The notes under the pieces: generated by a model
What the model was told of the DNA's origin: nothing
Databases searched by the model: none
What the model saw: the letters and a program-made list of their open reading frames with translations, nothing else
DNA from: Candidatus Enterocola sp.
Lineage (GTDB): Bacteria; Bacteroidota; Bacteroidia; Bacteroidales; Paludibacteraceae
Direction of reading: 5' to 3'
NCBI GenBank assembly: GCA_045643245.1
Contig: JAZUKL010000066.1
Span: forward strand, 5,815 to 69,814
DNA: 64,000 nt
Made by a program: the position numbers and the translations under genes
Shown here: piece after piece, positions 5,875 to 15,340 of the stretch
Layout of the letters: each line of letters starts with the position of its first letter
Position numbering within the stretch: position 1 is the stretch's first letter

Positions 5875-5897
5875 AATGTGTTTTCAAATTTGGGGTA

Positions 5898-6083
5898 CAA
5901 AGTTACACAAACGAGAGCAAAAATCAAAAAATGCGAGCATTTTTTGAAAAAAAAGATATAAGGTGGGAGTTGGGAGCTTGCTCACAAAATTCCACCTTAT
6001 GTCTTTTTCAAAAACGGAACGTTTTTGTTTTTGCCGAGTGCAGGTTAACTTCACGAGTGGCGAAGCCACGAGTAAAGTTATAC
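5898..6083 (-). repeat. promoter-bearing dispersed repeat, copy 1 (long form, drives asd)
   Basis: It shares more than 60 nt of near-identity with 15035-15340 and 16886-16948. The rc of CAAAGTTA (5898-5905) is the -7 box TAACTTTG, 24 nt upstream of the asd ATG. It contains the palindrome AAAAAATGCGAGCATTTTTT, an inserted hairpin ATAAGGTGG (5958-5966) / CCACCTTAT (5992-6000), and a GTGGC-gaa-GCCAC hairpin. Confidence 0.75.
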
Positions 6084-6140
6084 GAGAAAACAAGCAACAT
6101 ATTTATATACAGAAGCGTCCTACATGTTATAAACATAAAG

Positions 6141-6200
6141 AAATGTCCTAAAAGTGCAAAAATTACACTAAAAGTGCAAAAAATGTCTTAAAAGTGCAAC
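6141..6200 (+). promoter_or_regulatory. three tandem 20-mers (core TAAAAGTGCAA) upstream of the RM promoter
   Basis: The units are aaatgtccTAAAAGTGCAAa / aattacacTAAAAGTGCAAa / aaatgtctTAAAAGTGCAAc. A partial inverted copy TGCACTT lies just after the -7 box. Confidence 0.5.
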
Positions 6201-6208
6201 AGTTTTTG

Positions 6209-6216
6209 TATATTTG
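6209..6216 (+). promoter_or_regulatory. -7 box TATATTTG for the RM operon
   Basis: It matches TAnnTTTG and lies 26 nt upstream of ATG 6242, inside the GTG-extended version of the ORF. Confidence 0.55.
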
Positions 6217-6241
6217 TCGTGCACTTAATAAATATGAAACT

Positions 6242-8161
6242 ATGGCAAATGAACGACAAACGGATCTATTGGTAGCCTCACTGTTAAATAGTGCTGGTAT
6301 AGATGCAACGCCCAATGGCAGTAATATATTAGAAATTCAAGCTGCACTAAAAACAGCTTCTAAAAGAGGAACTGGTCATAAAGGTTTCCCTGAGTATGTT
6401 GCACAAGTTGGCGATTTCATAATGGTAATTGAAGATAAAGCAGACAGATCAAAACAAGCCAAATATCTTGATGCCAATAATCAAAATTTATTGATGGATG
6501 ATACATCTATTTCAAATTATGCTGAAAACGGTGCGTTACACTATGCTCAAAAGATTGTAGCAAACACACACTTTAACAAAGTTTTTGCGTTTGGTTGCTC
6601 TGGTACTGAAAGTGAAAATTTGATAATTCGTCCAATTTTTGTATCCCCAACTAGCTACAAACTATTAGATAAAATAAAAGATTTTAGTAACTTTTCAGTT
6701 GATAAAATATCATCCTATTATACTACTGTAGTCTGTCAGGAGAAAACGGCAGATCAGATAGAATTGGAGAACATTTTAGCAAAAGCATCATCGTTGCATG
6801 AAGATTTACACATATATGGTTCTCTTTCCAATGAGCAAAAACCTATTGCAGTTTCCGCAATATTATTGGCTATAGAAAATCCGCATTTTTCCACAGAAGA
6901 CTTGACTGGAGATCAGAATCATACAGATGGACAAAAAGTTTATGACGCATTAGAGTCTTATATGGAACAAGTGGAGGTCGCACCTCAAGAAAAAAAGGAA
7001 CGCGTACTAGATGAATTTAGATTTATTAAAACAAGCCCTAAGTTGTCTCAATATGAAGAAAGATTGGGCAAATCCCCTATACGTTTTTTTGCAGAATACC
7101 TTTATTCCAATGTTTCAACTGCTTTTCACTTTAATACACCTGAAGACATTTTAGGTCGCTTTTATGGAGAATTCATGAGTTATAGCGGTGGCGATGGTCA
7201 GTCACTTGGAATAATATTAACTCCAAAGCACATTACTCAATTGTTTTGTGATTTAGTTAATCTAAAACCCTCAGATGTAGTTTTTGATCCTACATGTGGT
7301 ACAGGTGGTTTTCTCGTAGCAGCTATGCATAATATGTTAAATAAAGCACGAACTAACCAACAACGCAAAGATATACGAAGACAACAATTATATGGGATAG
7401 AACAAAATGTGCGTATGTACTCTATTGCAACAACAAATATGATTCTAAGAGGTGATGGCAAGAGTAATTTAGTATGTGCGGATTTCCTAAAACAAGATAC
7501 TAACGATTTAAGACAGAGACATTTCACGGTAGGACTGATGAATCCTCCGTATTCGTTGGCAATAAATGGAGAAACAAGACATTTAAGTGAATTGCACTTT
7601 ATTAAGCATTTGTTGGATTCTTTAGATGATGGCGCACGTTGTGCTGTTATTGTACCTCAATCTACGATGGTAGGGAAAACGACAAAGGACAAAGAAATAA
7701 AATACTATTTATTGGAGCATCATACATTAGAGGGTGTTGTCACTCTAAATCCTGACACTTTTTATCGTGTTGGCACTAACCCAGTTATTGCTATTTTTAC
7801 GGCACACCAACCGCAACCATCTAACTATTACTCAAAGTTTATCAATTTTAAGGACGACGGTTATGAAACCAAACCACATATAGGTTTTGTTCCAACAAAT
7901 AGAGCAAAAGAACGACGAGAGTTTCTTTTGGAATGTTGGAATAAAAACAGACCAGCACCTAATGATTTTATGGTTCGCTCTACAGTTACCGCAGAGGACG
8001 AATGGTTACATTCATTCTACTATTTTAATGAGGATATTCCCACTGATGCAGACTTTGAAAAAACAATGGCAGATTATCTTACATTTGAATTTAATATGAT
8101 TGCACACAGACGTGGATATTTATTTGAAAACACAAACGAGGAGAAGGAGGTAACACTATGA
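6242..8161 (+). CDS. Type IIB (BcgI-like) restriction-modification subunit: N-terminal PD-(D/E)XK-like nuclease fused to a gamma-class N6-adenine methyltransferase
   Basis: The protein is 639 aa from MANERQ. The N-terminus carries FPE(51)-x12-IE(64)DK(66). MTase motif I is VFDPTCGTGGFLV and motif IV is LMNPPYS. An S-subunit gene follows with an ATGA overlap, and no HsdR helicase gene is present. Confidence 0.75.
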   Translation: MANERQTDLLVASLLNSAGIDATPNGSNILEIQAALKTASKRGTGHKGFPEYVAQVGDFIMVIEDKADRSKQAKYLDANNQNLLMDDTSISNYAENGALHYAQKIVANTHFNKVFAFGCSGTESENLIIRPIFVSPTSYKLLDKIKDFSNFSVDKISSYYTTVVCQEKTADQIELENILAKASSLHEDLHIYGSLSNEQKPIAVSAILLAIENPHFSTEDLTGDQNHTDGQKVYDALESYMEQVEVAPQEKKERVLDEFRFIKTSPKLSQYEERLGKSPIRFFAEYLYSNVSTAFHFNTPEDILGRFYGEFMSYSGGDGQSLGIILTPKHITQLFCDLVNLKPSDVVFDPTCGTGGFLVAAMHNMLNKARTNQQRKDIRRQQLYGIEQNVRMYSIATTNMILRGDGKSNLVCADFLKQDTNDLRQRHFTVGLMNPPYSLAINGETRHLSELHFIKHLLDSLDDGARCAVIVPQSTMVGKTTKDKEIKYYLLEHHTLEGVVTLNPDTFYRVGTNPVIAIFTAHQPQPSNYYSKFINFKDDGYETKPHIGFVPTNRAKERREFLLECWNKNRPAPNDFMVRSTVTAEDEWLHSFYYFNEDIPTDADFEKTMADYLTFEFNMIAHRRGYLFENTNEEKEVTL

Positions 8162-9193
8162 AAACTTTAGACCAATGCAAATGGAAAGCATTTAATATAA
8201 GTGAAATAGCAAGTATAGGAACTGGTGCAAATATAGCTAAACAGCAGCTAACTGAAGGTAATACACCACGTATTTCAGCAACAGATGCAAATAATGGTAT
8301 TGAATCCTTTACAGCAAAGCATTCATCAATTCGCAATTACAGAACATATAAAAATTGTATTTCTATATCTTTTTTAGGTTCTTGCTTCTATCAACCATAC
8401 GAAGCCAGTTATGACATGAAAATTCATAATATTCAACTGAAAGAAAAAAAACTAAATAAATATCTTGCATTATTTATAACAACACAGTGCAAACGATTCT
8501 GCGAGCATATAAATTATGGTAATCAATTATCCTCATCTGATTTGCCTAAGCAAAAAATTATGCTCCCCGTAACAGAACAAGGCAATCCAGATTGGGCCTT
8601 TATGGAGGAGTATATGAAAGCAAAAGAGCATCAATTACTTGCACAATATCAAAAATATATTACACAAATTATTGATAATCAGCAAATTACCCCCCATTAG
8701 CAGTAAGCAATGGCGAGCATTTAGAATAGAGGATATATTTTCAATACAACGTGGTAAACGTTTGAAAAATGGCGACCATATTACAGGAAAAACACCTTAT
8801 GCTTCATCATCTGCGATGGATAATGGAATAGATGATTTTATAAGCAACACGAAGAATGTACGTATATTTGCAAATTGTTTAACAATAGCAAATAGTGGCA
8901 GTGTTGGTTCTACTTTTTATCATCCATACTCATTTGTAGCGAGCGACCATGTAACTAAATTAGAGAATAATCTAATGAGCAAATATGCATATTTATTTAT
9001 AGCACAGATAGTTGAAAAAATAAGAGAAAAGTATAGCTTTAATAGAGAAATTAACGATGACCGCATTAGGCGAGAAATAATTATGCTCCCAATCACCCCT
9101 GAAGGAACACCAGATTACGAATATATGGCAGGCTATATGAAAAACATAGAAAATCGTATTATACAAAAATACATTAACGTCAAATTACTATAA
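8158..9193 (+). pseudogene. HsdS-like specificity subunit (two TRDs), split by a frameshift at a C6 tract
   Basis: ORFs 8158-8700 (frame 1) and 8639-9193 (frame 2) each encode one TRD plus the conserved IMLP(V/I)T..G.PD(W/Y).(F/Y)M..YMK segment. The C-run at 8690-8695 sits at the switch point. Losing one C would give an in-frame product of about 344 aa (...DNQQITPISSKQWRAF...). Confidence 0.8.
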
Positions 9194-9229
9194 CCCGTCA
9201 ATATACCTATAATAATTTCTGTAAAACCG

Positions 9230-9601
9230 TTACTGTATATACATATATGATTGTGGCGGATATTTAATACCAAAATCACTTAACAATAACGGCTCAGGAT
9301 ATTTGGTCATTCTACCTACTGCAATGGCGTTTGCTTCTCTCTTCTGTGAAAAGTATTCATCGTAAAACATTTTGCTAATACCTGAATATTGTGAGGTTTT
9401 CTGCCATAAACTTTCTACATCGTCTGTTATAATTTCAGAAATCTTGAATTCTCCAATTACTTTTTGCACTGGAGAAGAAGCATATACTACTACTGTGTCA
9501 ACACTTGGATTTTTGAAGACACTTTTACGAAATTCAAATTTTTTGGAACCATCAAATATCTTGTTGGCAAACTCTGGTTTAATTGACAATAAAACTTTCA
9601 T
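9230..9601 (-). CDS. ASCH (PUA-like) domain protein
   Basis: The 123-aa protein begins MKVLLSIKPEFANKIFDGSKKFEFRKS, a typical ASCH N-terminal strand-helix. It overlaps the upstream gene by 23 nt. Confidence 0.75.
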   Translation of the reverse strand: MKVLLSIKPEFANKIFDGSKKFEFRKSVFKNPSVDTVVVYASSPVQKVIGEFKISEIITDDVESLWQKTSQYSGISKMFYDEYFSQKREANAIAVGRMTKYPEPLLLSDFGIKYPPQSYMYIQ

Positions 9602-11084
9602 TTGATTGTGTTGCTTTTAGTATTGTGTTGAGTTTATCGGTAGTAATTTTTTTAAAACCACGTGGTGCGTCATCTATGCCGGAAAGAACCCCCAAACGTA
9701 TAAGTTCTGACATATTTATCCTGTGTGGAAATGAATAGGTGTATAAAAATTTAGTTGCAACTGGAGAACCTTTTGAATACTCCCACAATTCAACTAATTC
9801 CTCATTTGAATAAACGCTACTTTTTCTACAATAAGATAAAAATTCATCTTTTGAGGAAAATCTATCCCTAACTTCTTCCACTATACACAATGAGGTGACA
9901 ACACCCTTGTAATACCCTCCTGTTCTATAGAAGATTATTAAGTCACCTTTGTTTGGATAAGGTTTTAAAAATCTTGACACATAGACCTTCCCAATACAAT
10001 TTCTGTGAGGAAAGTTTTCTACAAAATTTAATGGTGATTCCGTATTTAAAATTGAATCAGGCAATAATTCCGTATGATATTTAGAGTAAATAGATACAAT
10101 AAAACAGTTTTGTACCCGTGATACATAAGGGAAACAACCCCTTATATTGTTAATATTAAAATTTGGACTGAAATTACGGACATAGACTTTTTCTTCTCCA
10201 TTTTTTGTACCCCAATACACAAATCCCCATTGCTCTAAAAGTGTTATAAGTCTGCGTTGTTCGTCTCTTTTGTCAAAAATTGTAACATAGATTTCTTGAA
10301 CTTTGTTTTTTAACGCATTATCAAAAATTATTTTCAGGAAACGTTCCCCTAACCTGAATCCATTACTTATAATTTTTAGTGTACCTATCTTCAGCCTTCT
10401 TTTGGGTACAAACAATGGTGAAATATCAGAATAATTTTCTGTTGTATCTTCTATTTTTAAATATAGAAATGATAGTAACTTCTTATTGTCAGCATTTTCT
10501 GTAATATAGGCTTCTTCATCATATTTTGAAACGAACCACTTGTCAAAACCGGAATAATCTGTTCTAAGGCTATCAAAAAACGGGTCCATTAAATTGATTT
10601 CACCAAACTTTCTCTTTCTAACGTTTAATATTTTATAATCAACTAAATTAGGGTTGTCTGCAAAGGCTTTTTCCAAAAAAGAGTCAATATTATACACCTT
10701 GTCTTGAATTTTAAGATGCTTGGCTTTAGTATGGATTTTTTTATCTTCTGTTACCAATATATCAACACGTCCGACATATACTTCATTTAAAAGTTGGGTA
10801 TCTATTTTGTCATTTGGAGTACTGTCCAGTAATGACGAGACCCTGAGCACTTCATCGTGGATGGGTGATGGAATGGTTATTTGCTCGTAACTGCTTAGTT
10901 TTATAAGAAAACTGTCAACAGTTGACTTATTAGGATTCTTTTTGATTTCCTCAATAGTTGCAGAATGCACACATTTGATGTAATGGCATTTTTCTAACCA
11001 TTTAAATAACAACCCTATATCTTGAGAAATAACTTTTGTTGTCTCCCGATGTATAATTATATTTGTATCTAAAAGTGCCTTCAT
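9579..11084 (-). CDS. multidomain protein: PIN-like RNase / GNAT-like / ASCH-like (PUA-fold) domains
   Basis: The protein is 501 aa. PIN acidic positions are seen in LLDTNIIIH (D6), IEE (44-45), NDKID (91-95) and ILVTED (109-114). The central segment LKIGTLKIISNGFRLGERFLKIIFDNA is GNAT-like. By eye, aa ~325-470 parallels the downstream ASCH ORF. Confidence 0.6.
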   Translation of the reverse strand: MKALLDTNIIIHRETTKVISQDIGLLFKWLEKCHYIKCVHSATIEEIKKNPNKSTVDSFLIKLSSYEQITIPSPIHDEVLRVSSLLDSTPNDKIDTQLLNEVYVGRVDILVTEDKKIHTKAKHLKIQDKVYNIDSFLEKAFADNPNLVDYKILNVRKRKFGEINLMDPFFDSLRTDYSGFDKWFVSKYDEEAYITENADNKKLLSFLYLKIEDTTENYSDISPLFVPKRRLKIGTLKIISNGFRLGERFLKIIFDNALKNKVQEIYVTIFDKRDEQRRLITLLEQWGFVYWGTKNGEEKVYVRNFSPNFNINNIRGCFPYVSRVQNCFIVSIYSKYHTELLPDSILNTESPLNFVENFPHRNCIGKVYVSRFLKPYPNKGDLIIFYRTGGYYKGVVTSLCIVEEVRDRFSSKDEFLSYCRKSSVYSNEELVELWEYSKGSPVATKFLYTYSFPHRINMSELIRLGVLSGIDDAPRGFKKITTDKLNTILKATQSNESFIVN

Positions 11085-11095
11085 ATAAACTTCTA

Positions 11096-11103
11096 CAAAG
11101 ATA
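11096..11103 (-). promoter_or_regulatory. -7 box (TATCTTTG on the minus strand) for the PIN-fusion/ASCH operon
   Basis: The rc of CAAAGATA matches TAnnTTTG. Only 11 nt separate it from the ATG, so the mRNA has a very short leader or none. Confidence 0.5.
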
Positions 11104-11132
11104 ATAGATTTTTTTGATTTACAAAATAAATT

Positions 11133-11552
11133 TCAGATAACCGCCAGACATTTTTGCCCTATGGTGTGCAATCCAGTGATTATTTTTTCTCTTTGTTTGG
11201 GGCGTGGTATGCTTACCGCATTGGCGTAATGCGATAATTGAGCGTGTTTCATACCAGTAACATTACTTAATGCTGTTAAAGTTGTATATTGCAATGCTTG
11301 CTGAAGCATAGCGGACACCGTTGAAACAAACTCTAATTCATAGTTTCCCGCTTCAGCCCACAATGGTAATTTATCTCCATCGTTTTTCATTCCCTCGATA
11401 TGAAAAGCCATCGCTTCGGCAAATTTCTGTTTTATTCCACTTTCTGTTTTGTCTGTAACAATAACAGCCCCGAAATCTGGCATCGCAAATGCCGCACTAA
11501 AATTTTTATCCTCCCAATTAAGTTTGATTTTTAAGACTTCTTTTTGTTCCAT
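11133..11552 (-). CDS. hicB: HicB-family antitoxin (N-terminal HicB fold plus C-terminal HTH)
   Basis: The 139-aa ORF lies directly downstream of hicA. The C-terminal LSNVTGMKHAQLSHYANAVSIPRPKQREKI is HTH-like. Confidence 0.75.
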   Translation of the reverse strand: MEQKEVLKIKLNWEDKNFSAAFAMPDFGAVIVTDKTESGIKQKFAEAMAFHIEGMKNDGDKLPLWAEAGNYELEFVSTVSAMLQQALQYTTLTALSNVTGMKHAQLSHYANAVSIPRPKQREKIITGLHTIGQKCLAVI

Positions 11553-11566
11553 ATTATTTTCCTATT

Positions 11567-11761
11567 TTATTTCCAACCTGCCTGTTTCCATATACTGAAT
11601 AATAAATCCTGACTTAATGTATCACTTGGTTTTCCATTAACGGTAACCTTACCCTTTAACATAGGATGCTTTAATTGCCTATGGTCTCCCTTTATGGTCA
11701 TTATATACCATCCCTTTTCTTTAAGTAAGTCTAATACTTCTTTTACTTTGTACCTTTTCAT
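11567..11761 (-). CDS. hicA: HicA-family mRNA interferase toxin
   Basis: The 64-aa protein carries KGDHRQLKHP...VTVNGKPSDTL...KQAG, the G-[SD]-H HicA/YcfA pattern. Confidence 0.8.
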   Translation of the reverse strand: MKRYKVKEVLDLLKEKGWYIMTIKGDHRQLKHPMLKGKVTVNGKPSDTLSQDLLFSIWKQAGWK

Positions 11762-11775
11762 TATGTATGATGTTG

Positions 11776-11802
11776 CAAAAATAGTATTATTTTTAATACT
11801 AT
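11776..11802 (-). promoter_or_regulatory. hicAB promoter (-7 TATTTTTG) overlapping a 9-bp perfect palindrome
   Basis: The rc of CAAAAATA (11776-11783) matches TAnnTTTG. The palindrome ATAGTATTA-tttt-TAATACTAT (11781-11802) abuts it. Confidence 0.5.
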
Positions 11803-11823
11803 CAAAATTTACACTAAATTATT

Positions 11824-13242
11824 TTACCTCCCCAACACAAACGGGACTCTCTTTTTCATTATGACTTTTGAGTTGTTGAACACCTCAAATATCACCACAT
11901 AAATTCCAAACGGCATAAGCATGTTCCTGTCAGAAAAGCCATTCCACATAATAACACCTGACGGTGCAAGAAACATTCTATTGCAAAGCACTTTAACCAA
12001 CACACCATCTGTGTTATACACAGCAATATTTGCTACCGCACTCTCATCTATTTTGTAGTAAATCATAGCCAAATCATCCCTGCCGTCTCCGTTTGGAGTG
12101 AATGTGGCAGGTTCAACCCATATAGTTTTATCGGTTTTATCAATAGGTTTTATTGGTTTGTATTGTGAATTTTCATATCCTGGTGTTGCAAATCCTACAT
12201 TTTCAGCCGCCGATGCCCATACATCAATATTTGGGTTTACACGCTCAAAACTAACCCCTTGCACATCGCTGAGCATGGGGCTGTGCATTGTTTTGGCATT
12301 ATAGTAGACTGAGTCAACAAGAACGGTTCCGCACCTCAAAACCACACAGCCTGAGTCCTTTACATAAGATGGAATCTTTAGTTCAATTATTGCATTATCA
12401 GTACAATTATAAAACTCCTCCAACGATGCCGAATCTTGCGTAAAAACCTTATACTCACCACTGTAGAACTTTTTTGATGGTAGAGTAACTTCGGTCTTCC
12501 CGTTTCCCAAAGTAATGTCCGCCAAATTAAATGTTGAGTCTGAGTTATTGAATATCTCAATAAAATCATACCCTTCTGTATACGGATAAGAGAGAATTTC
12601 ATTTATGACAATCTCCCTATATTTTGGTTTAGGGTACTCTTTGTATGGCTCTCCCTTACAAGACAGCCCCCACATTGAGTATCCTTTGGAACGTGTGGAG
12701 GAGTATTTCAAGTAAAAGCCAGAGAACTTTGCCCGTTCAAAGGTGTTGTCTGTTACAGTGAACTCAAGCAAAGTGTCTTGTTCTGTTTCTATACCGGAAT
12801 ACACGCTCCACACCCCAAATTCATCTCTACTTACCTTTATATATATAGGTGCATTTTCCTGCACTCTCTTTTCATTGCCTTGTGCCAAAACTGAGATTGA
12901 AGTTCCGCTCTGCCTGCAGAGAGAAATGTTTTTATCAGTATAACCAATTCTTATGAAGTAGCCACACAGTTCTCCCTTTAAGCTGGCAGAATCAGAAAAG
13001 AGATACCATTTTATATAATTTGAAGAAGATGAGGCAAAATCAAATTTGAAATTGCATTGCCAAACGGCAGTATAAACAACTGACGATGTGTCAGAAATGT
13101 AGGCATCGGAAGTTTCAGAAGGGGCATTAAGATGTATGGTATCGGCGTTAAAGCTGAACTTTGACAAATCACCCGTCCAGGCAAATGCCGCCTGAAACAT
13201 AAAAACAAAGGTCACTGACCACAAAAAAATTCTCATATCCAC
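11824..13242 (-). CDS. secreted lamin-tail-domain protein with a CHU_C / T9SS type-B-like C-terminal domain
   Basis: It has a signal peptide MDMRIFLWSVTFVFMFQAAFA, an LTD-like VINEILSYPYTEGYDFIEIFNNSDSTFNLADITL segment, and a C-terminal FTPNGDGRDD motif. Confidence 0.7.
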   Translation of the reverse strand: MDMRIFLWSVTFVFMFQAAFAWTGDLSKFSFNADTIHLNAPSETSDAYISDTSSVVYTAVWQCNFKFDFASSSSNYIKWYLFSDSASLKGELCGYFIRIGYTDKNISLCRQSGTSISVLAQGNEKRVQENAPIYIKVSRDEFGVWSVYSGIETEQDTLLEFTVTDNTFERAKFSGFYLKYSSTRSKGYSMWGLSCKGEPYKEYPKPKYREIVINEILSYPYTEGYDFIEIFNNSDSTFNLADITLGNGKTEVTLPSKKFYSGEYKVFTQDSASLEEFYNCTDNAIIELKIPSYVKDSGCVVLRCGTVLVDSVYYNAKTMHSPMLSDVQGVSFERVNPNIDVWASAAENVGFATPGYENSQYKPIKPIDKTDKTIWVEPATFTPNGDGRDDLAMIYYKIDESAVANIAVYNTDGVLVKVLCNRMFLAPSGVIMWNGFSDRNMLMPFGIYVVIFEVFNNSKVIMKKRVPFVLGR

Positions 13243-15034: not shown

Positions 15035-15340
15035 CAAAGTTACAAAATCGAGAGAAAAAATCAAAAAATGCAAGCATTTTTTGAAAAAAAGTTGGGAGGT
15101 ATCACGTGGGAATTTATTCACATAGTGATACCGCTCAACTTTTTCAAAAACGTAACGTTTTTGTTTTTGCCGAGTGCAAGTTACCTTCACCGAGCGAAGC
15201 GAGGTAAAGTTACACTGGAGCAAAGCGAAAGTGCAAGTTACCTTCACCGAGCGAAGCGAGGTAAAGGTACACTTACAAAGTAAGTTGTTTTTACCTTCAC
15301 GACGACTGAAAGGAGGAGTAAAGGTAACCTGTAGCAAAAT
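15035..15340 (-). repeat. promoter-bearing dispersed repeat, copy 2 (long form with tandem 57-nt units)
   Basis: The rc of CAAAGTTA (15035-15042) is the -7 box, 24 nt from the nptA-like ATG. It has the same core as copy 1. Its inserted hairpin is GGTATCAC (15098-15105) / GTGATACC (15125-15132). The 42-nt unit gtgcaagttaccttcaccgagcgaagcgaggtaaag[tg]tacac occurs at 15175 and 15232, and a partial third unit lies at 15291-15329. Confidence 0.75.

Follow-up and report, generated by a model that had tools for sequence, protein, structure and literature searches.

Genes A and B, the subject of this report, form an overlapping pair on the minus strand of a 64,000-nucleotide stretch from Candidatus Enterocola sp. 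(Paludibacteraceae; assembly GCA_045643245.1, contig JAZUKL010000066.1, positions 5,815 to 69,814; the whole stretch analysed is called the window), and encode, respectively, a fusion of PIN, GNAT and PUA-like domains and a stand-alone ASCH protein. PIN-GNAT-EVE proteins accompanied by an ASCH gene in the same operon were described by Bell, Wolf and Koonin (BMC Biol 2020, PMC7641849), who observed that the PIN-containing form often adjoins restriction-modification (RM) systems of type I, stated that none of these modules had been characterised and credited both the first description and a proposal of DNA-base acetylation to Iyer et al. (NAR 2013). The pair also appears among the 145 phage defence candidates (PDC) of Payne et al. 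(bioRxiv 10.1101/2024.01.29.577857) as PDC-M11 (CAS_00069), reported in an E. coli O157:H7 strain; candidates were collected in that study by guilt-by-embedding, that is, from genes located inside BREX, DISARM or type I RM systems. DefensePredictor omits the PDC systems because they are unvalidated and says nothing of the architecture, and the PIN-GNAT-EVE plus ASCH combination is not discussed in a 2025 EcoSal review of RM systems or in a 2026 BREX paper. A tblastn search of phage genomes recovered PIN-less homologues in lambdoid E. coli phages, and the record of Escherichia phage PhiR47_2 (PV340567.1) annotates the pair as 'GevT toxin' / 'GevA antitoxin'.

The window pair was compared with each of these. 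Protein A matches the PDC-M11A profile (PDLC04422) over positions 1–500 of 501 (E 5.2e-208) and protein B the PDC-M11B profile (PDLC04425) over positions 1–123 (E 2.9e-50), and the genes neighbour each other on one strand in the A>>B order of the PDC-M11 cassette (FAM_00697>>FAM_00247). RM genes lie next to them, which parallels the discovery by guilt-by-embedding, and no difference from PDC-M11 was found. With the operons of Bell et al. (PMC7641849) the locus has in common the fusion, the operon ASCH gene and the proximity to RM genes, but it lacks the AAA_17 accessory noted by those authors, the RM genes beside it are not a type I system but encode a BcgI-like enzyme of type IIG whose S gene is split, HsdR being absent, and its third domain, which they name EVE, is structurally nearest to ZmASCH and not to a canonical EVE domain. 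Protein A is 37% identical to GevT (E 2e-62) and protein B 56% identical to GevA (E 3e-53), in both cases across the whole phage protein, and the 23-nucleotide (nt) overlap and junction sequence are the same; GevT, however, is a GNAT-PUA protein of 357 amino acids (aa) with no PIN domain, to which the window protein adds a PIN domain of 145 aa, and GevT/GevA is prophage cargo located directly downstream of cI.

The pair is thus already known: it is catalogued as PDC-M11, was described in 2013 and 2020, and in its PIN-less form is annotated as toxin and antitoxin. A preliminary description of the window had presented the architecture as undescribed, a claim overturned by the full-length PDC-M11A/B matches, the account of Bell et al. 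and the GevT/GevA annotation; it had further said that its claim would fail on a match to a system already named and characterised, and here the pair proves to be named, whereas a published characterisation was not found in the literature searched. The locus belongs to the (PIN-)GNAT-EVE plus ASCH family in a minimal form, with two genes only, and on balance we consider it somewhat probable that it acts as a toxin-antitoxin-type conflict module. The observations on which we draw are the gene structure, the domain folds with their intact catalytic-type residues, a strict A-B linkage with natural fusions, the presence of the pair on phages and plasmids, and an association with RM genes. The window adds one member, from a Paludibacteraceae-like genome, to this catalogued candidate system.

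Gene layout

The two open reading frames (ORFs), of 501 and 123 aa with a 23-nt overlap, lie where the preliminary description had placed them. The features of the locus are as follows.

9579..11084, minus strand: gene A, a PIN-GNAT-PUA (EVE-like) fusion of 501 aa (ORF, PADLOC PDC-M11A profile, AlphaFold, Foldseek)

10650..11084, minus strand: predicted PIN domain, aa 1–145 (Pfam PIN_3, Foldseek 7og5, residue conservation)

10134..10649, minus strand: predicted GNAT acyltransferase domain, aa 146–317 (model topology, Foldseek, Acetyltransf_1 in relatives, conservation)

9579..10133, minus strand: PUA-like (EVE/ASCH-like) putative reader domain, aa 318–501 (Foldseek ZmASCH, Pfam EVE, hhalign)

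9230..9601, minus strand: gene B, a stand-alone ASCH protein of 123 aa (Pfam ASCH, PDC-M11B, ZmASCH, GevA, model)

9579..9601, minus strand: dual-coding overlap of A and B, 23 nt (ATGAAAGTTTTATTGTCAATTAA), from the B start codon to the A stop codon

11096..11125, minus strand: promoter-like motif of the Bacteroidota type, TTTG-N18-TATCTTTG, whose end is 11 nt upstream of the gene A ATG

Domain structure of protein A

An entry identical to protein A exists in a public protein collection, and its homologues number in the thousands. Since the Pfam signal of the protein alone was weak, diverse relatives were collected (1,791 representatives when clustered at the 50% level), of which 65 diverse members were aligned and each scanned against Pfam. 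A single-sequence search against the PDB returned a spurious match only, so that structure prediction was needed; the AlphaFold model built from the 65-member alignment (pLDDT 92.5, pTM 0.79) has three domains and confirms, at the level of a prediction, a division into PIN (residues 1–145), GNAT (146–317) and PUA-like EVE/ASCH (318–501) parts.

The PIN-like character proposed earlier for the N-terminus is borne out. This part of the model resembles the PIN-type RNase P HARP (7og5; Foldseek against the PDB, E 3.5e-4, TM 0.62), and the Pfam PIN_3 profile, sub-threshold on protein A itself (E 0.011), is matched by 15 of the 65 family members (best 8.9e-7). An acidic tetrad, D6, E46, D95 and D114, is intact in A and in about 42 of the 56 PIN-bearing members. 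Among the acidic residues singled out beforehand, D6 and others are found as given, but the run labelled 'IEE44-45' in fact covers residues 44–46, and E46 is the conserved one. In a subset of 11–13 of the 56 PIN-bearing members, G6/D8 replace D6/N8 and an asparagine appears at 113/114, a pattern that could mean a PIN domain without activity, or with its active site displaced, in this subfamily. With the VapC-type PIN toxins protein A has in common the PIN fold with four acidic residues; they differ in that the PIN domain in A is a dispensable N-terminal accessory, absent from family forms of ~350 aa, and in that no VapB-like partner is present.

For the middle domain no Pfam match was obtained with protein A alone, and Acetyltransf_1 is matched by four of the 65 family members (best 4e-5). 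Residues 155–304 of the model follow the canonical GNAT order b1-a1-a2-b2-b3-b4-a3-b5-a4-b6-b7, and Foldseek aligns the domain with NatD, PaiA and many other GNATs in the PDB (E about 2e-5 to 1e-4). The segment LKIGTLKIISNGFRLGERFLKIIFDNA, which had been put forward by eye as a GNAT-like b4-a3 unit, turns out to be exactly b4 (230–238) and a3 (243–259) of the modelled fold. Eight core positions (F170, Y177, W183, K232, K237, T268, F288, E298) are invariant in all 65 sequences and Y266 in 64 of them, and the loop G242-x-[RK]244-x-G246-E247-R248 has strongly conserved G242, G246 and E247. The GNAT type II toxins TacT, AtaT, ItaT and KacT, cited by Bell et al., share the GNAT acyltransferase fold, used there as a toxin that arrests growth via the translation apparatus. 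These are single-domain proteins paired with ribbon-helix-helix (RHH)/DUF1778 DNA-binding antitoxins and have no PUA reader, PIN domain or ASCH partner, whereas A is a three-domain protein with an ASCH partner and is not related to them at the sequence level.

The third domain certainly adopts a PUA-like fold in the predicted structure. Indeed, the best PDB match of the whole A model is ZmASCH, aligned through this C-terminal domain (Foldseek, E 1e-5, TM 0.77); the Pfam EVE profile is sub-threshold on A (E 0.12) and matched by 13 of the 65 members. The parallel drawn earlier between this region and the small ORF is likewise upheld, the C-terminal domain aligning with the gene B family in hhalign weakly (E 0.0057) and colinearly over 118 columns, with the same pairing, although the GxKxxExR motif is missing from it. 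When mean identities were compared over loci whose A protein is less than 60% identical to that of the window, the GNAT domain ranked highest (60%), followed by the ASCH partner (55%), the PIN domain (54%) and the PUA-like domain (45%), a ranking that points to a constrained catalytic core and a variable reader domain.

The ASCH protein encoded by gene B

The assignment of the small ORF to the ASCH family is confirmed by several routes. Protein B scores 26.3 bits against Pfam ASCH (PF04266; gathering cut-off 21.2) and finds ZmASCH in the PDB by sequence (E 5.5e-11), and its model (pLDDT 94.5) superimposes on ZmASCH, TthASCH and YqfB with Foldseek TM values of 0.90, 0.70 and 0.72, respectively. 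The octapeptide GxKxxExR is fully conserved in two alignments, with G18, K20, E23 and R25 invariant in 77 of 77 and 44 of 44 sequences. The family has 14–18 invariant positions, including the octapeptide and Y40 (equivalent to ZmASCH Tyr47), and S118 (equivalent to ZmASCH Ser128) is present in 77 of 77 sequences of one alignment and nearly invariant in the other. Across the family B keeps about 55% identity where A drops to 37–50%.

B thus has in common with ZmASCH (ZMO0922; PDB 5GUQ/5GUS), TthASCH and YqfB the fold, and with ZmASCH in particular the GKER motif and the equivalents of Tyr47 and Ser128, whereas ZmASCH Lys53 is a glutamine in B. ZmASCH also gives a match to PDC-M11B (E 3e-29). 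It differs from B in being an orphan in Z. mobilis, while B is paired with gene A; membership of ZmASCH in a GNAT-EVE operon was considered and rejected, the 375-aa gene upstream of it being unrelated and of secreted type, with no BLASTP, PADLOC or hhalign signal.

Published work on these relatives bears on what B may do. ZmASCH binds and cleaves single-stranded RNA, and mutagenesis identified Tyr47 and Ser128 as important (PMC5615036). A 2026 preprint reported that in vitro 19 ASCH proteins including ZmASCH strip N4-acetylcytidine (ac4C) at position 34 (ac4C34) off E. coli tRNA, a reaction for which the Lys and Glu of the octapeptide are essential in the GKER-type proteins (bioRxiv 10.64898/2026.02.27.708502). 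These activities suit an enzymatic role for B. A non-enzymatic one, in which B would neutralise A by binding, regulate the operon through DNA or RNA, or sense infection and release A, is possible if rather unlikely. It agrees with the proposal of Bell et al. that ASCH binds modified DNA and controls expression, with the helix-turn-helix (HTH)-ASCH fusions they report in alpha-proteobacteria (PMC7641849), and with the HTH-domain partners annotated on rhizobial plasmids; the B of the window, however, has no HTH. TRIP4 ASCH structures have been solved with double-stranded DNA, ZmASCH had no significant effect on ac4C in vivo, and the natural A-B fusions described below would fit an autoinhibitory sensor domain. 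Set against this, enzymatic activities are on record for proteins of the ZmASCH clade, and the 14–18 invariant positions, the GKER dyad and the ~55% identity maintained across phyla amount to more conservation than a binding-only antitoxin would lead one to expect.

Linkage of the two genes

The linkage of A and B was surveyed in 80 related loci, on contigs from one genome per species. Gene B lies directly downstream of A in 76 of them, and in the other four the contig ends 836 nt or less after gene A; the two genes are thus conserved neighbours wherever the sequence extends far enough to be informative. The nearest relatives of the window locus come from metagenome-assembled genomes of Paludibacteraceae from horse faeces (96–97% identity). 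The 23-nt overlap recurs in GevT/GevA of the E. coli phage, in orf12/13 of Salmonella SopEPhi, in ORFD/ORF5 of the archaeal virus psiM100 and in Pontibacter and Pontiella, and the junction ATGAAAGTTTTATTnTCnATTAA is almost invariant across all of these. A recurring overlap with a near-invariant junction argues for dual coding, and on these sequence grounds the two genes are probably coupled in translation.

Fusions of the two proteins occur naturally. A 632-aa protein (P0125) joins A to a C-terminal ASCH domain that is 42% identical to B (E 3e-25), and the forms of ~615 aa have a DUF3850/ASCH-like domain at the N-terminus. No gene A without an ASCH partner was seen among the loci examined, and B-type ASCH proteins without A do exist, as ZmASCH in Z. 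mobilis shows. Such an asymmetry is what is expected of an antidote.

The Methanothermobacter phage psiM100 (locus L086, 3501–5346) encodes a full-length PIN-GNAT-EVE protein (ORFD) and the ASCH protein ORF5. According to its record, an inserted fragment specific to psiM100, IFa, spans most of ORFD and does not include ORF5, which is common to psiM2; by annotation, psiM2 therefore carries the ASCH gene but not that portion of ORFD which IFa covers.

Additional components accompany the pair in some loci and are absent from the window. About a quarter of the related loci (21 of 80; e.g. L004:6988-8016, L030:9497-10432) appear, from their sequences, to add a previously unannotated, membrane-anchored third component of 310–350 aa with one or two C-terminal transmembrane helices. 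It is located directly upstream of A in ten loci and mostly between A and B in the other 11 (nine cases), and hhalign identifies its two forms as homologues (probability 83%, E 8.6e-6); it gave no match in Pfam or PADLOC and no mention of it was found in the literature searched. A 173-aa P-loop protein of the AAA_17 family (e.g. L045:7480-8001; Pfam E 1.2e-12, with a weak match to PADLOC VakA) is present in 22 of the 80 loci, in 18 of them directly upstream of A, and corresponds to the accessory ATPase of Bell et al. In two further loci (L087:1852-4474, L088:1950-4474) ASCH genes of the ZmASCH clade overlap the 3' end of genes for proteins of 683–725 aa that contain a GNAT domain and, at the C-terminus, a PUA domain with a match to PDC-M11A (E 5e-13); they lie beside type ISP / MmeI-like RM genes. 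Judging by these similarities, they are a further architecture on the same theme.

Distribution and genomic neighbourhoods

The protein A family comprises three architectures, of ~500, ~350 and ~615 aa, and is found in Bacteroidota, Proteobacteria, phages of Firmicutes, archaeal viruses and plasmids. Homologues were located in 16 phage records and 33 plasmid records, and a GevTA-like pair (at least 99% identity) is present in 275 of 5,426 complete E. coli genomes (5%) as near-identical chromosomal copies. In the lambdoid PhiR47_2 the two genes follow directly downstream of cI (L084, 4995–6423), a slot that we take to be the rexAB position of lambda, and in the P2-like SopEPhi they are flanked by the replication gene A region on one side and the portal gene on the other (L085, 3929–5393). 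Both insertion sites are presumably places at which prophages carry defence cargo.

A census of neighbours, covering 25 dereplicated loci and the 150 proteins encoded within three genes of the pair, identified RM genes as the commonest recognisable neighbours, present in about a fifth of the loci. The leading families by number of proteins were Methylase_S (6), AAA_17 (6), N6_Mtase (5), ResIII (3), HSDR_N (2) and integrases (2). The same BcgI-like RM family accompanies the pair in the six closest relatives in two different arrangements, with type I genes elsewhere. The RM association is thus real and limited to about a fifth of loci. Together with the conserved pairing and the carriage on phages and plasmids, it lends support to the toxin- or defence-type interpretation offered in the preliminary description.

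The proximity to RM genes invites a different explanation, namely that a DNA base is acylated by the GNAT domain, that this modification serves as an epigenetic self-mark or against restriction, and that the EVE and ASCH domains read it beside an RM system. It has a parallel in Mom of phage Mu, an acyltransferase-fold modifier of DNA bases, and the carriage of the pair by phages agrees with it, as does the repeated RM adjacency just described. DNA-base acetylation was proposed by Iyer et al. in 2013, as relayed by Bell et al., who also note an ASCH-HsdS fusion in Methanohalophilus (PMC7641849). Nonetheless we hold the explanation to be quite improbable. PIN domains usually act as RNases, the annotation of the phage form is toxin and antitoxin, most loci have no RM or nuclease partner, and no dedicated modification-dependent nuclease is conserved with the pair.

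Function of the pair

In the favoured reading, a toxin-antitoxin-type conflict module, gene A would be the effector. Its GNAT core would move an acyl group from acyl-CoA to a nucleic-acid amine, most likely in RNA or tRNA; its variable PUA-like domain would pick the target through recognition of a base, modified or not, and the PIN domain would cleave RNA in a metal-dependent way. Gene B, kept at a fixed ratio to A by the 23-nt overlap, would act as antidote, most likely by hydrolysing the acyl mark with the Lys/Glu dyad of GxKxxExR, or alternatively by occupying the same nucleic-acid ligand. On infection, or when the module is lost, the balance would shift in favour of A and translation would shut down. 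In this scheme we infer the substrate, the toxicity of A, the antidote mechanism and the anti-phage activity.

Writing and erasing a mark is the logic of DarT/DarG, in which the toxin places a covalent mark on nucleic acid and the antitoxin removes it enzymatically. Only this proposed logic is common to DarT/DarG and A/B; folds and chemistry are unrelated, DarT/DarG relying on ADP-ribosylation and a macrodomain. The writer/eraser version is the most attractive one because of the catalytic-type dyad of the ASCH protein and the deacetylase activity reported for its relatives, and by analogy with DarT/DarG we put it forward, as a specific version of rather low probability. An immune module in which the GNAT domain acylates RNA (tRNA) or a DNA base at sites chosen by the PUA-like domain, the PIN domain cuts marked or bound RNA, and the ASCH deacylase erases the mark until infection occurs is unlikely as it stands; were it true, it would constitute a new toxin-antitoxin chemistry and link the enzymology of ASCH 'ac4C erasers' to phage defence. 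If the writer/eraser proposal holds, it would bring a new covalent nucleic-acid modification into toxin-antitoxin and defence biology and supply a physiological partner for the ASCH domain, which is widespread. Despite the size and breadth of the family, neither published biochemistry nor a phage assay was found for any member in the literature searched.

Several observations weigh against a conflict module of this kind. PDC-M11 is a bioinformatic candidate only, presented without a domain description in the main text of its source; no publication behind the name GevT/GevA was found in the literature searched, so that these labels are annotation, and neither was an experiment on any PIN-GNAT-EVE protein. 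Within protein A, the pyrophosphate-binding loop between b4 and a3 is non-canonical (G242-x3-G246 and not Q/RxxGxG/A), so that use of acyl-CoA by the GNAT domain is putative, and acidic positions of the PIN domain are substituted in about a fifth of PIN-bearing members. As for B, it carries E23 where YqfB-type amidohydrolases have Thr (GK[T/S]R), and ZmASCH was inactive on free ac4C and without significant effect in vivo (bioRxiv 10.64898/2026.02.27.708502). At the level of neighbourhoods, most loci have no recognisable defence gene within three genes, and 13 Flavobacterium loci adjoin the suf operon at one conserved site.

The last two observations, and the reported activity of ASCH proteins as tRNA ac4C erasers, would also be in keeping with a housekeeping or stress-related writer and eraser of RNA modification, for instance in tRNA ac4C turnover, with no role in conflict. 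We judge such a function very improbable, since the pair is patchily distributed (present in 275 of 5,426 E. coli genomes), travels on phages and plasmids and in the window occupies a low-GC islet with RM and HicAB genes, since PADLOC derived the pair from its embedding inside defence systems, and since an added PIN nuclease is hard to square with routine modification.

Promoter and surrounding genes

The window has a GC content of 31–35% across positions 6000–12000, with flanks at 38–43%, and within this region the pair is flanked by a BcgI-like type IIG restriction-methylase and its S gene on one side and by HicAB on the other. An independent promoter had been suggested from a -7 box 11 nt before the first ATG (position 11084). 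This box, TATCTTTG, is one half of a full bipartite Bacteroidota-type motif, and the pattern TTTG-N18-TATCTTTG has 20 matches in the window, where 3.3 +/- 1.7 are expected. A separate copy of the bipartite motif precedes hicA (11776–11806). From the enrichment of the pattern and the separate copy before hicA, the A/B pair appears to own a promoter. A scan of the region for sigma-70-type promoters was uninformative (5 sites against 13.6 expected).

The RM setting named in the preliminary description stands. The 655-aa 'methylase' ORF (6194–8161) matches PADLOC REase_MTase_IIG (E 2.7e-160, a profile of 637 positions) and carries a PD-ExK-like motif, VGDFIMVIEDK, in its N-terminal region; as there is no HsdR at the locus, the system is type IIG and not type I. 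Its S gene (8158–9193) is divided into two overlapping ORFs (8158–8700 and 8639–9193), the split falling at a C6 homopolymer ('attaccccccatta') at the junction 8690–8695, and it is a single ORF of 345–346 aa in the two close relatives L001 and L002. The split could mean that the gene is a frameshifted pseudogene or varies by phase, or that the assembly is wrong here. Compared with L002, the first target-recognition domain of the S protein differs and the second is nearly identical.

HicAB, which had been included in the same setting, is an independent neighbour not conserved with the pair. It lies directly upstream on the same strand (11133–11761), HicA with a Pfam E of 5.6e-14 and the HicB-like protein with a weak 0.029. 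Its inclusion as a component was ruled out: among the 80 loci only L001, and partly L002, has HicAB, which marks it as a separate module, and it has its own promoter-like motif. L001 also encodes, three genes from the pair (L001:4084-5457), a PADLOC PDC-S01 candidate, an AAA_14/DUF4143 ATPase (E 1.7e-114), which adds to the defence-islet character of the region in this lineage.

An intergenic repeat of 50–160 nt with a promoter-like core (TTTG...TAACTTTG) is present at 5894–6054, 15035–15190 and 16902–16952, two copies being direct (75–93% identical) and one inverted (94–96%), and sits upstream of an asd-like ORF, an ORF for a 583-aa transporter-like protein and a plus-strand gene. A tandem pair of 44 nt is located at 15173–15216 and 15230–15273.

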